DNA of 64,000 nucleotides from an uncultured delta proteobacterium (lineage in GTDB: Bacteria; Myxococcota_A; Polyangia; Polyangiales; Polyangiaceae). The stretch spans positions 4,960,001 to 5,024,000 of the forward strand of contig CAWAIF010000003.1 in assembly GCA_963782055.1 (NCBI GenBank). Direction: 5' to 3'. The translations under genes and the position numbers were made by a program. This document shows, piece by piece, positions 33,947-37,842 of the stretch (positions are counted from its first letter, which is position 1; each line of letters begins with the position of its first letter). The notes beneath the pieces were generated by a model that did not search any database, had not been told where the DNA came from, and saw nothing but the letters and a program-made list of their open reading frames with translations.

Positions 33947-35425
33947 TCAGCTCGGGGTCCGCGCGCGGCGCTTGCGACCCAGGCCGCGACGCTCCAGCAG
34001 GCGGTAGAGGGTGACGGCGTCGACCCCCGCCAGGGCGGCGGCCCGGCGCACGTCGCCCGACGTCTCGGCGAGCAGGTCCTCCAGGTAGCGCCGCTCCAGC
34101 GGGGCCAGCCACTCCTCGCGCAGCTCCCGCAGACCGCGTCGCGCTGCGGGGGCGGGGGCGGGCGCCGGGGCGACGATGGACCGCGGCAGGTGCTCCGGCC
34201 GGATCTCCTGCCCTGCGCTCAGGATCACCGCGTGCTCCAGCGCGTTCTTCAGCTCGCGCACGTTGCCGGGAAAGTCGTAGCTCGCCAGCGCGGCGAGCGC
34301 CGCCGGCGAGACGGGGCCCGCGGGCAGCGCGTGCCGCTCCGCCGCGAGCTTCACGAAGACGTGCGTCAGCACCTCCAGGTTGTCCTTGTAGCGGCGCAGC
34401 GGCGGCAGCTCGAAGGTGATGACCCCCAGCCGGTAGTACAGGTCGTCGCGGAAGCGCCCCTCCTTCACCATCGCCGCGAGGTCGCGGTTGGTGGCGCAGA
34501 CGAGGCGCACGTCCACGCGCTCCGGCGCGCCGTCGCTACCGAGCGGCTGCACCTCGCCGTACTCCACCGCGCGCAGCACCTTGGCCTGGAGCATCAGCGG
34601 GAGCTCGCCGATCTCGTCCAGGAAGAGCGTGCCGCCGTGGGCCTTCTGCATCTCCCCGATCTTGTGCGCGGTGGCCCCGGTGAAGGCGCCGCGGCGATGA
34701 CCGAAGAGGGTGCTCTCCAGCAGCGTGTCCGGCACCGCCGCCGCGTTGACGATGACGAACGGCCGATCGGCGCGCCGGCTGTTGAAGTGGATGGCGTGCG
34801 CCACCAGCTCCTTGCCCGTCCCGCTCTCCCCCTGGACGAGGACCGGCGCGCTGGTGGGCGCCGCGTACTCGATGCGCCGCTCCACCTCCGTCCACTCCGG
34901 CGAGAGGCCCTTGATGAGGAAGGGGCGTCCCGTCGCCGCGCGGGTCGCGCGCTCCAGCGCGGCGCGTCGAAGGAAGCGCGCCGACGACGCCGCGAGCGCC
35001 TCCAGCTCCTCGACGTGCTGCTCGCTGAAGGCGCCCGGCTCGCGCGCCGAGACGGTCAGCACCCCGATCACGCGGCGCTGGTAGCGAATGGGCACCGCGA
35101 CGATGGACCGGACCTCGAGGAAATACCGCGCGTAGTTGGGGTCCCCGCGCGTGTCGGCGGCGAGGTAGGGCGCGTCGTGCTCCAGCACCCAGAAGGCGAT
35201 GCCGTTGGGGCGGCCGTCGCGGCGCCGCTCGAGCACCGCGCCCGGGAGGTTCACCACCAGCCCCTCGACGACGTGGAAGTGCACCACGAGCGCGTCGCGC
35301 TTCGCGTCCCGGAGAAAGAGCGCGCCGTTGCGCGCCCCGGTCCGCGCGAGGGCCTCCTCCATCAGCCGCTGCTCGATGGTCTCCGCCTCCGCGGCGTGCA
35401 GTCGGTGCTCCGAGCCTCGCGCCAT
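33947..35425 (-). CDS. GAF-domain sigma54-dependent enhancer-binding protein (Fis HTH)
   Basis: N-terminal GAF (GIAFWV...RSIVAVPI); GESGTGKE, GAFTGA, LFLDEIGE, FRDDLYYRL, FPGNVREL; C-terminal HTH. Confidence 0.93.
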   Translation of the reverse strand: MARGSEHRLHAAEAETIEQRLMEEALARTGARNGALFLRDAKRDALVVHFHVVEGLVVNLPGAVLERRRDGRPNGIAFWVLEHDAPYLAADTRGDPNYARYFLEVRSIVAVPIRYQRRVIGVLTVSAREPGAFSEQHVEELEALAASSARFLRRAALERATRAATGRPFLIKGLSPEWTEVERRIEYAAPTSAPVLVQGESGTGKELVAHAIHFNSRRADRPFVIVNAAAVPDTLLESTLFGHRRGAFTGATAHKIGEMQKAHGGTLFLDEIGELPLMLQAKVLRAVEYGEVQPLGSDGAPERVDVRLVCATNRDLAAMVKEGRFRDDLYYRLGVITFELPPLRRYKDNLEVLTHVFVKLAAERHALPAGPVSPAALAALASYDFPGNVRELKNALEHAVILSAGQEIRPEHLPRSIVAPAPAPAPAARRGLRELREEWLAPLERRYLEDLLAETSGDVRRAAALAGVDAVTLYRLLERRGLGRKRRARTPS

Positions 35426-35449
35426 GGGATTGCGATGATTCCACTGGAC

Positions 35450-35463
35450 TTGCATTTCTGCAA
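35450..35463. promoter_or_regulatory. Palindrome TTGCA-N4-TGCAA, candidate enhancer (UAS)
   Basis: TTGCATTTCTGCAA in an AT-richer spacer about 75 bp upstream of the -24 box, with related TTGC half-sites nearby. Confidence 0.55.
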
Positions 35464-35536
35464 CAGTTGCTATCATTCGCACAACTACGGGCGCGCCGAC
35501 TCCGCGGTTTCCCGCGGGGAGCAGGAGGCGGAGGCG

Positions 35537-35552
35537 TGGCACGCGTCTTGTA
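35537..35552 (+). promoter_or_regulatory. Sigma54 -24/-12 promoter
   Basis: TGGCAC-GCGTC-TTGTA against consensus TGGCAC-N5-TTGCW (one mismatch), divergent from the activator gene. Confidence 0.7.
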
Positions 35553-35566
35553 AAAGGCCGCGCATC

Positions 35567-35767
35567 ATGAAGGTGCCCGTCGTCCTCGAGCCCAGCGTCC
35601 GCACCGGACGCGTCCGCGCCTACTGCCCCGACCTGCCCGGCTGCTCCGCCGTCGCCGGGTCGGAGCCGGACGCCCTCGCCCTGCTCCGTCGGCGCATCGA
35701 GGACTACTTCGCCCGCTCCCCCCTGCGCGCCGCACCCGGCACGCGCACCACCACCGTCGAAGTCTGA
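35567..35767 (+). CDS. Short HicB-like protein (N-terminal domain only)
   Basis: MKVPVVLE...RAYCPDLPGCSAVAGSEPDALALLRRRIEDYF resembles the HicB PDLPGC motif; 66 aa; no DNA-binding tail. Confidence 0.72.
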   Translation: MKVPVVLEPSVRTGRVRAYCPDLPGCSAVAGSEPDALALLRRRIEDYFARSPLRAAPGTRTTTVEV

Positions 35768-35790
35768 AAGCACCGCACAGGAAGCTCGCC

Positions 35791-37071
35791 ATGAACCACC
35801 GCCTCGCCCTCGCCCTGCTCGCCTCGTCGCTCTTCTTCCCGGCCTGCGCCATGAACACCGGTGATCCCACGGCGTCCAGCTCCGGGGCCGCGCTCAGCAT
35901 GTCGGCGGACGACGCCGCGCGTGTGCTCGCGCTGGTCAACTACCCCGGCACCGACCGCACGACGCTGGACGACGCCGTGGGCCTGGACGCCCGCGCGGCG
36001 CAGAACATCGCGGCGTACCGCGCCGGCGACGACGGCGTCGTGCCGTCGGCGGACGACCGCTACTTCGGCGACCTCGGCGAGCTCGACGCCGTCCCGTACG
36101 TCGGCGACTCGGCCTTCCAGAAGCTCCAGGCCTACGCAGCCAACCACGCGGTGCCCGCGGCGGAGTCGGTGGAGGGCGTCTACTTCCGCGGCTGGCAGTC
36201 ACAGACGGTGGTGTGGGCGGTCGATCACCTGGACGAGGCGTCGCTCGACGCGGTGCTCGACTCCCGCGCCGCCAAGAATCTGGTGGCGGCCCGCCCCTTC
36301 TCCACGGTGACGGCCATGGGCCCGGTCTCGTACGTGGGCGGCAGCGCGCTCGCCAGCCTGCGTGACGCCGCGACCACGTGGTGGCCGCTGATGCAGTCCA
36401 ACGCCACCGAGAGCCTGGCCGGGACCTTCGACGGCGTCGCCTTCGACGAGCCGACGGCGGAGACGGCCCTGGAGATCGCCAACCAGGCGAGCGCGGCGCG
36501 GCTCACCGCGCATGGCGTGGCGACGCACCCCGCCGACCTGATGGTCGCCGGCCGCGCCTACACCACGCTCGCCGCGGTGGCGGGCGTCTCCGGCGTGGGC
36601 ACGGCGACGATGGCCGCCCTCCACGACTACGCGACGAGCGGCGACTGGGGCCAGGACCCCAACGCGTGCGTCGACGCCTTCCAGGCCGCGGTCTCGCCGC
36701 ACCTGGGCGATCTCTTGCTGATGAGCGAGAGCGATCGCCCGCTCGACCTCGTCTCGTACCCCGGCGCGGGCACGCAGGCGCCCACCGCCGACTCGGTGCT
36801 CGCCCTCGTCGGCGCGGAGGCGGGGAGCACCGCGGAGGTTCGCACCCTCGACTACTTCAAGATGGTGCTCGAGCCCTCCAGCGACAACGCCGACCCCAAC
36901 GCCGCGGCGGACGTGGTGGCGGCGATCGGGGCGCAGCTCACCGACGTCATCGTGGTGAAGGTGCACAAGCCCCAGAACGACCCCTACAGCGCCGAGGTGG
37001 ACATGTACGTGCTCGGCCGCACCTCCTGCGGCGATCTGGTGGGCCTCCACGCCATCGCGATCGAGACCTGA
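35791..37071 (+). CDS. Lipoprotein with three ComEA-like HhH repeats and a C-terminal NuiA-like (nuclease A inhibitor) domain
   Basis: Lipobox FPAC; repeats ending LDAVPYVG, MGPVSYVG, VAGVSGVG; C-terminus LLLMSESDRP...EVDMYVLGRTSCGDLVGLHAIAIET. Confidence 0.8.
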   Translation: MNHRLALALLASSLFFPACAMNTGDPTASSSGAALSMSADDAARVLALVNYPGTDRTTLDDAVGLDARAAQNIAAYRAGDDGVVPSADDRYFGDLGELDAVPYVGDSAFQKLQAYAANHAVPAAESVEGVYFRGWQSQTVVWAVDHLDEASLDAVLDSRAAKNLVAARPFSTVTAMGPVSYVGGSALASLRDAATTWWPLMQSNATESLAGTFDGVAFDEPTAETALEIANQASAARLTAHGVATHPADLMVAGRAYTTLAAVAGVSGVGTATMAALHDYATSGDWGQDPNACVDAFQAAVSPHLGDLLLMSESDRPLDLVSYPGAGTQAPTADSVLALVGAEAGSTAEVRTLDYFKMVLEPSSDNADPNAAADVVAAIGAQLTDVIVVKVHKPQNDPYSAEVDMYVLGRTSCGDLVGLHAIAIET

Positions 37072-37257
37072 ACCGGTCGCAGGCGCCGCGGCCCTCCGCG
37101 CGTCGGGCTTCCCGGCCTGGAATGGATCTCCGCACCGACCCCGCGCGGGCAGTTGCCGCGCGGCGCCGGCGCATCGACCGCCCCTGCTACTGGATGGTGG
37201 CCATGCCCGAGGGCGCGGCGGGCCCGGCGCTTATGTCCTGCATGGTCGGCGCCCGCG

Positions 37258-37842
37258 GTGCTGTGGCCGTCGGTGCGCGCGCTGCGCAAGCGACACCCGC
37301 GCCTGCTGCCTCGCCTCCTCGTCCTCGACCCCACCCACCTTCAGGAGTCGCTGCTGCGCGGCGAGGTGGACGTCGCGCTGCTCGACCGGCCGCCGCCACC
37401 CAGCGCGGAGCTCTTCGTCGAGCGGCTCGGGCGGCTGGGTCACGGCATCTTCGCGCCGCCCGGTCACCCCCTGGCGGGCCGGCGCAACCTCGATCTGCGG
37501 GAGGTCGCGACGTACGCGTTCGCCGTCGCCGCACCGCGCGCCGACGATCCCGTGCCGCCCGACCGCTGGCCCGCGGAGATCCCGCGCGAGGAGCTGCTGC
37601 GCGTGGCGGACGTCGCCATGGCCGCCGACGCGTGCGCGGAGGTCGGCGTGCTGGCGGTCCTGCCCGATCTGGTGGGACGAGGTCACGCCGGCGGGCTCCG
37701 CCGCCTCCCGGTGGCGCTGCCGTCTGGCGCGGAGGCCGATCTCTATGCGGTGGCCCGGGCGCCGGCGGGCGGCGCGCACCATGCCCGCACCGACGCCGCG
37801 CTGGAGGTGCTGCGCGCGCGGGCGGGTACGCTCTCGACCTGA
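37258..37842 (+). pseudogene. LysR substrate-binding domain without HTH (truncated or stand-alone)
   Basis: LWPSVRALRKRHPRL...LLRGEVDVALL...PPGHPLA...LAVLP; no HTH seen upstream. Start uncertain. Confidence 0.6.

Follow-up and report, generated by a model that had tools for sequence, protein, structure and literature searches.

A conserved sigma-54-type unit of Myxococcota with a divergent activator and an exchangeable lipoprotein

What is a NuiA-like nuclease inhibitor doing at the end of a predicted exported lipoprotein, beside a HicB-like protein and behind a sigma-54-type promoter? The question arises from a locus in a 64,000-nucleotide (nt) stretch of DNA, here called the window, from an uncultured delta proteobacterium of the family Polyangiaceae (assembly GCA_963782055.1, contig CAWAIF010000003.1, positions 4,960,001 to 5,024,000 of the forward strand), whose genome measures 7.58 Mb and is 97% complete. 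An earlier note on this sequence proposed an inducible module of two orphan antidotes, in which the HicB-like protein would neutralize HicA RNases and the lipoprotein would inhibit NucA-type nucleases. We find that the unit is real, conserved, and built from known parts in a new combination, and that how it is regulated can be stated with far more confidence than what it does. Only half of the proposed double antidote, the lipoprotein, stands up. All of the elements named in the earlier note (activator, palindrome, -24/-12 site, and two genes with 23-nt spacing) are present where it placed them. The features are as follows:

33947 to 35425, minus strand: sigma-54 activator, GAF-AAA+-HTH, 492 amino acids (aa), from Pfam and a 23-ortholog alignment
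35429 to 35444, no strand: predicted enhancer box 2, the weaker one, matrix score 13.4, 4 base pairs (bp) upstream of the activator start codon
35449 to 35464, no strand: predicted enhancer box 1, matrix score 20.0, containing the palindrome at 35450-35463
35537 to 35551, plus strand: predicted sigma-54 -24/-12 promoter, 12-15 nt before the start of the small open reading frame (ORF) in 25 of 25 loci
35567 to 35767, plus strand: protein of 66 aa with a predicted HicB fold and without the HicA-blocking residues, from codon pattern, structural model, and residue counts
35791 to 37071, plus strand: lipoprotein, 426 aa, with a signal peptide and Cys19, three HhH-type modules, and a C-terminal NuiA domain, from Pfam and a structural model
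35902 to 36651, plus strand: three ComEA-like (HhH)2 modules, net acidic, residues 38-122, 124-200, and 210-287 of the lipoprotein, from profile and structural matches
36664 to 37068, plus strand: NuiA domain, in which S-E-S-D and the C-terminal E-T are invariant, from profile and Foldseek matches

Activator, enhancer boxes, and promoter

The activator is encoded divergently from both genes, and its Pfam domains are GAF, sigma-54 AAA+ (E 1e-63), lid, and HTH_8. Its Walker A, Walker B, and GAFTGA motifs are intact, which places it among the GAF-type sigma-54 enhancer-binding proteins, and GAFTGA is invariant in the 23 orthologs, which are 63-85% identical. When 401 genomes of the order were searched with the GAF region, 42 proved to have an ortholog; in a sample of the phylum, the same search detected orthologs in 19 of 401 genomes, 18 of these in the same class. 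A metal sensor of the PexR or NorR type was considered for the activator and rejected, as the metal ligands are missing and the GAF domain has no Cys.

The palindrome TTGCA-N4-TGCAA and the promoter sequence TGGCAC-N5-TTGT are each the sole match of their pattern within the window. The palindrome forms the core of a 16-bp box with the consensus GTTG(A/C)A-N4-T(G/T)CAAC, and a partner box lies 20 bp away. Such a partner, at a spacing of 20-21 bp, is present at 24 of 25 loci, with very low scores in a few cases. The -24 element reads GGC(A/C)(C/T) in all 25 loci, and the -12 element reads GC in 22 and GT in the window and two close relatives; the distance of 12-15 nt to the small ORF is counted from the -12 base. 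By sequence conservation, then, a -24/-12 promoter with palindromic boxes upstream accompanies the activator, as expected for a sigma-54 enhancer-binding protein. The start of transcription is predicted near 35563, which would make the mRNA near-leaderless.

The box scores above the background maximum of the enhancer matrix (12.9 in 300 windows) in 36 of 43 activator loci. The figure is 31 of 38 for activator loci outside the training set, which is a fair test because the matrix was trained on other loci. As judged from sequence, the enhancer tracks the activator even where the genes are unlinked: an activator was found elsewhere in four of four genomes in which an unlinked lipoprotein gene keeps the box, compared to one of six in which it does not, with the caveat that these ten genomes were picked by box score ahead of the activator search and that the assemblies may be incomplete. 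It is very probable that the activator binds the boxes. Because the boxes abut the activator start, self-repression is suggested.

The window locus is the sole instance of tandem boxes with a promoter in its own genome. A broad regulon was considered and rejected. Across 49 genomes the box and promoter pattern gave 38 matches compared to 22 in a reversed control, and where the pattern occurred apart from the activator, the genes behind it were for the most part unrelated; we therefore claim no broad regulon. The leaderless start was likewise set aside as a special feature of the unit, since it is a genome-wide habit: 88 ATGs sit 12-14 nt past the -12 base at 179 strong sigma-54-like sites. These numbers, which are inflated by a multi-copy family, suggest widespread leaderless sigma-54 transcripts. 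Dozens of near-identical sigma-54-like sites in this genome (for example, C3:56248, C3:3968282, and C3:2965388, all on the minus strand) precede ORFs that begin MDPVFF or MTPLFF 13-14 nt on, and they look like a family of genes or repeats, present in many copies, that brings its own promoter.

Conservation of the unit and exchange of its cargo

A single-protein search of genome contigs found no relative, whereas a search with a 78-sequence lipoprotein alignment found 71 loci, 11 of which lack the N-terminal module and were set aside. Among the remaining 60 loci, which come from records titled Polyangiales, Kofleriaceae, and Myxococcaceae, among others, 23 have the divergent activator, the small gene, and the lipoprotein, and in 6 the small gene is present but the sequence stops too early. 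In two more the activator stands without the small gene, in 25 both are absent, and the last 4 are too short. Some loci are near-duplicates, the small gene is frameshifted in one (L084), and another (L065) looks misassembled, so these counts are not independent. Flanking genes vary between loci. The three-gene arrangement, the box, and the promoter thus recur together, and in this respect the earlier note is borne out: a sigma-54-type unit is conserved together with a divergent activator of its own.

The cargo is less constant. The 23 complete units end in NuiA in 16 cases, in other domains in 4, and are cut off in 3. The 43 activator loci sort by their first divergent gene: it encodes a DUF1508 protein at 17 loci and an HhH-type lipoprotein at 12; an amidohydrolase accounts for 7 more, and the remaining 7 have another gene or none. 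The DUF1508 cargo is a lipoprotein with four DUF1508 repeats, and the amidohydrolase cargo consists mostly of lipoproteins with a lamin-tail-like start. The exact form with the small gene and NuiA occurs at 5 of the 43, and the family of the small gene was detected in just 8 of 401 genomes of the order (E below 1e-20). The idea of a fixed two-antidote module is weakened by this: NuiA is missing from 4 of the 20 complete units with a readable end, and at most loci the activator drives other lipoproteins, with no small gene in between. Since the cargo varies and the small gene is rare, the stable unit appears to be a switch for one exported lipoprotein, of which the window holds one version. In terms of predicted elements, the conserved core is an activator, an enhancer, and a sigma-54 promoter driving an exported lipoprotein that is exchanged between lineages. 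An activator tree puts the small gene in three separate groups; it comprises 62 sequences (two loci with short matches were dropped) and has a midpoint root and weak deep nodes, and it does not establish in which order the gene was gained and lost.

Several variants of the cargo were noted in passing. Four-repeat DUF1508 (YegP-like) lipoproteins are the commonest target of the activator (L152, L156, L160-L176, L253, and L255). An acidic domain of 180 aa that ends in Cys and has no Pfam match replaces NuiA in several lipoproteins (L041, L048, L064, L066, L068, L040, and L077). A paralogous lipoprotein in the window's own genome (L019, C3:3039120-3042713, gene 1036-2124 on the minus strand) has two HhH modules and a P-domain, and its gene has no strong box and promoter. 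At two loci (L021 and L023), the gene for a lipoprotein with HhH and P-domain comes directly after the unit.

The lipoprotein and the small protein

The lipoprotein was modeled with a predicted local distance difference test (pLDDT) score of 92 as three helical modules followed by the NuiA domain. Its Cys19 is invariant in 78 of 78 relatives, and it is very probably exported. Pfam PF07924 places NuiA at residues 301-426 (E 3.9e-11, 43.8 bits against a cut-off of 22.1), in agreement with the earlier note, and the domain matches the NuiA structure 2O3B by profile (E 4.9e-10) and by Foldseek (E 1.6e-6). The S-E-S-D motif and the terminal E-T with a free C-terminal Thr are present in 78 of 78 relatives, which were selected as full-length and are not a random sample. 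The domain thus has the fold, the family match, the free C-terminal Thr, and the SES glutamate of a NuiA inhibitor; this glutamate, Glu24 of NuiA, and the C-terminus both have a role in inhibition. On balance, we slightly favor the view that the domain inhibits nucleases.

For the HhH modules, the HHH_3 match in Pfam fell just under the cut-off. The module matches the ComEA-related structure 2DUY (profile E 8.5e-5), and structural matches to TEFM, KIF22, and ComEA (Z 5.4-8.8) indicate an (HhH)2 fold. A conserved Arg (R68, R159) stands one residue before the position of the DNA-binding Lys of ComEA, and the same module occurs on lipoproteins with 5'-nucleotidase (two) or PLD-like (five) domains. 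DNA binding by these modules is plausible, although we lean slightly against it.

The small ORF is, by its codon pattern, a real gene under purifying selection: the proportion of synonymous differences (pS) is 0.46-0.47 and that of nonsynonymous differences (pN) 0.10-0.12 for the two nearest relatives, and pS exceeds pN in 24 of 26 pairs. The HicB-like label is supported by the fold of the model but not by a family match. The model (pLDDT 87) is best matched by the HicB N-domain 6G1C (TMq 0.74), Foldseek ranks 1-12 are all HicB/TTHA0281-like (best E 0.03), Atlas matches reach 0.90-0.92, and the partial RNase H (beta-beta-beta-alpha) fold of HicB antitoxins is predicted. The 66-aa protein alone has no Pfam HicB match, and 9 of 11 relatives have sub-threshold matches only. 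Its weaker profile matches are short HicBs, at least five of them followed by hicA-like ORFs.

In HicB of Streptococcus pneumoniae, Thr33 and Glu47 block the HicA histidine, and the E47A change abolished neutralization (PMC6159526). With the S. pneumoniae numbering mapped through a short HicB aligned to 6G1C, by the 14-residue spacing, the Thr33 equivalent is A28, which is Ala in 29, Ser in 4, and Gly in 1 of 34 members. The Glu47 equivalent is R42, acidic in none of the 34, and the residue after it is an invariant Arg. Of 27 members, 24 have a positive net charge, compared to a charge of -5 to -8 in five of five short HicBs. None of the eight strong family matches in the order sample adjoins hicA, and one carrier genome (G005) has the small gene and no hicA match. 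Given the loss of the blocking glutamate and the usually basic charge, the small protein is probably not an antidote, and we are fairly confident that it is not an antitoxin. The earlier note's proposal of a HicA antidote is therefore not supported.

The small gene always stands before the HhH lipoprotein (gap of 1-2 nt in 14 of 23 loci) and never before DUF1508 or amidohydrolase cargo. At one locus (L031, 5824-7269) it is fused in frame to the lipoprotein signal peptide, maybe through a short deletion or an assembly error. A recurrent fusion of this kind was considered and rejected as a single case; a search of longer proteins, itself a weak one, found no other.

Function and relation to known systems

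We propose that the GAF-type activator would bind the tandem boxes between the divergent genes and, in response to a small-molecule signal, open the sigma-54 promoter; the boxes at its own start would probably make it self-repressing. The near-leaderless mRNA would encode the small protein and, closely coupled to it, a membrane-anchored exported lipoprotein. The HhH modules may hold extracellular DNA, and the NuiA domain would plug the Mg2+ site of nucleases of the NucA/Serratia type, which are not made by the cell that carries the unit, so that the lipoprotein might serve as a shield against the nucleases of competitors or lysed prey. We read the small protein, presumably derived from a short HicB, as an optional accessory of the operon, in feedback or nucleic-acid binding, rather than as a HicA antidote. 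An inducible exported shield against foreign NucA-type nucleases is the most likely reading, and we hold it tentatively. In a fuller and more doubtful form of this proposal, a cue given by foreign cells or by free nucleic acid would induce the DNA-holding, nuclease-blocking lipoprotein as an extracellular immunity protein that guards the group's extracellular DNA against NucA-type enzymes of other myxobacteria or prey, with HicB co-opted as a non-antitoxin accessory. Extracellular DNA has been reported as a matrix component of Myxococcus xanthus biofilms (PMC3530553, PMC9073016).

The distribution of nucleases is consistent with a shield. Nucleases of families PF01223, PF04231, and PF13930 were not found in the window's own genome, and PF01223 was found in one of nine genomes that carry the HhH-NuiA lipoprotein. 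With a NucA-type nuclease in only one of nine carriers and an intact NuiA motif, the orphan status that the earlier note gave to the inhibitor holds. Among 301 genomes of the order, NuiA occurs in 61, PF01223 in 53, and both in 23, so foreign targets exist among relatives. Other genomes of the order have ordinary adjacent nucA-nuiA pairs, in which NuiA is short and lacks a signal peptide. In family f17 of the order one commonly finds other NuiA-ending lipoproteins, of about 170 aa or 350-380 aa, whose N-terminal part differs (L259-L274, L276-L281).

Several observations count against a shield. A nuclease family beyond the three searched could be the partner of NuiA, and the positions of Asp75 and Trp76, the second contact of NuiA in the NucA-NuiA structure, are not conserved in our alignment. 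NuiA is replaced in some complete units, as seen above, and 24 of the 43 activator loci drive DUF1508 or amidohydrolase lipoproteins with no obvious shielding role. The HhH modules are net acidic (medians -9, -3, and -3), the charge of the mature lipoprotein is -33, and Ala occupies the position of the DNA-binding Lys of ComEA, as Asp does that of the first hairpin Gly. Against our reading of the small protein stands a lone hicA-like ORF in the window's own genome, about 1.7 Mb from the unit (L092, 1474-1950, C3:6682524, with a low-complexity tail), in which no PF15919 HicB match was found anywhere in the genome.

This last point is one of those that keep the double antidote in view, with the small protein neutralizing cytoplasmic HicA RNases and NuiA acting outside. 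The predicted HicB fold speaks for it, as does the presence of hicA elsewhere in four of five other carriers; we nonetheless consider it very unlikely given the lost Thr33 and Glu47 equivalents, the effect of E47A in S. pneumoniae, the reversed charge, the carrier genome without a hicA match, and the family's absence from the vicinity of hicA. A scavenging role is less easily dismissed, if still unlikely. Here the activator would sense a purine or nucleoside and induce surface capture and processing of nucleic acids from prey or soil, and NuiA would keep the DNA intact for uptake. Such a role would accommodate the lamin-tail and amidohydrolase lipoprotein at 7 of 43 activator loci, whose best NCBIfam matches include guanine and 5'-deoxyadenosine deaminases, and the HhH paralogs with 5'-nucleotidase and PLD-like domains. 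Those deaminase matches are far below the cut-off, however, genes for transport, competence, or salvage are not among the conserved neighbors of the unit, and the tandem box and promoter occur at a single locus in the window's own genome.

Alternatively, the domains may be repurposed, and the lipoprotein may be an acidic, metal-binding envelope protein whose role, in structure or in stress, has nothing to do with nucleic acids; its activator would then sense envelope state or stress. We consider this improbable, less so than the double antidote. It fits the strongly negative charge, the weak PsbU- and GspK-type matches of the HhH module, the presence of PsbP, Mog1, and Maf1 among the neighbors of the NuiA fold, and the predominance of four-repeat DUF1508 lipoproteins as cargo (17 of 43). 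Against it, the invariant residues of NuiA are those of the inhibitory motif, including the free C-terminal Thr in all 78 relatives chosen as full-length.

Each part of the unit has a known counterpart. PexR of M. xanthus is likewise a GAF-AAA+-HTH activator of Myxococcota whose gene diverges from its sigma-54 target, and the short stretch between the two holds tandem palindromic boxes (PMC12754779). PexR has CACCG-n6-CGGTG boxes and ahpC/katB targets, and its GAF domain binds metal through His/His/Cys/Asp; the activator described here differs in its box, its lipoprotein target, and its GAF domain without Cys, and shows neither the PexR box nor its ligands nor a peroxide target. NuiA of Anabaena shares the fold, the SES motif, and the C-terminal E-T, but is cytosolic, constitutive, and paired with nucA (PDB 2O3B; PMC2790893, PMC13522737), whereas the domain in the window is the last of a predicted exported lipoprotein behind a sigma-54 promoter, with nucA not found in the genome. 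Compact hicAB/hicBA modules of classes 1 and 2 have HicBs of 57-94 aa without a DNA-binding domain (bioRxiv 10.1101/2023.12.08.570793). The small protein resembles them in size and shares C-P-x-x-P-G-C with short HicBs of the order (32-35% identity), but the lipoprotein gene stands in the place of hicA, the residues that contact HicA are gone, and the charge has the opposite sign. The DNA receptor ComEA is a membrane-anchored exported protein with one (HhH)2 module and without a catalytic domain (PMC9747964); the lipoprotein resembles it in predicted membrane-anchored export and (HhH)2 modules, and differs in having three acidic modules, Ala at the key Lys position, a fused inhibitor domain, and no linked competence genes.

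No description of the unit was found in the literature on NuiA/NucA, myxobacterial enhancer-binding proteins, ComEA, and YegP/DUF1508, in a survey without most subscription papers; the PexR homolog tables could mention the activator. NuiA has been described as a cytosolic self-protection partner of NucA. If the proposed shield is real, an exported, signal-controlled NuiA fused to a DNA-receptor-like protein and without a cognate nuclease would extend NuiA to protection against the nucleases of other cells. The small protein would be a clear example of selection maintaining a HicB fold once the residues that bind the toxin have been lost. This work also defines an apparently uncharacterized family of Myxococcota activators with a predicted binding box and exchangeable lipoprotein targets, which makes the signal directly testable.

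Three further searches gave no result: PADLOC matched neither cargo protein, no family reached the cut-off in an NCBIfam scan, and no terminator-like site was found 3' of the lipoprotein gene. Just 3' of that gene, at 37153-37842 on the plus strand, lies an ORF with a LysR substrate-binding domain and no HTH match, which resembles a truncated regulator.

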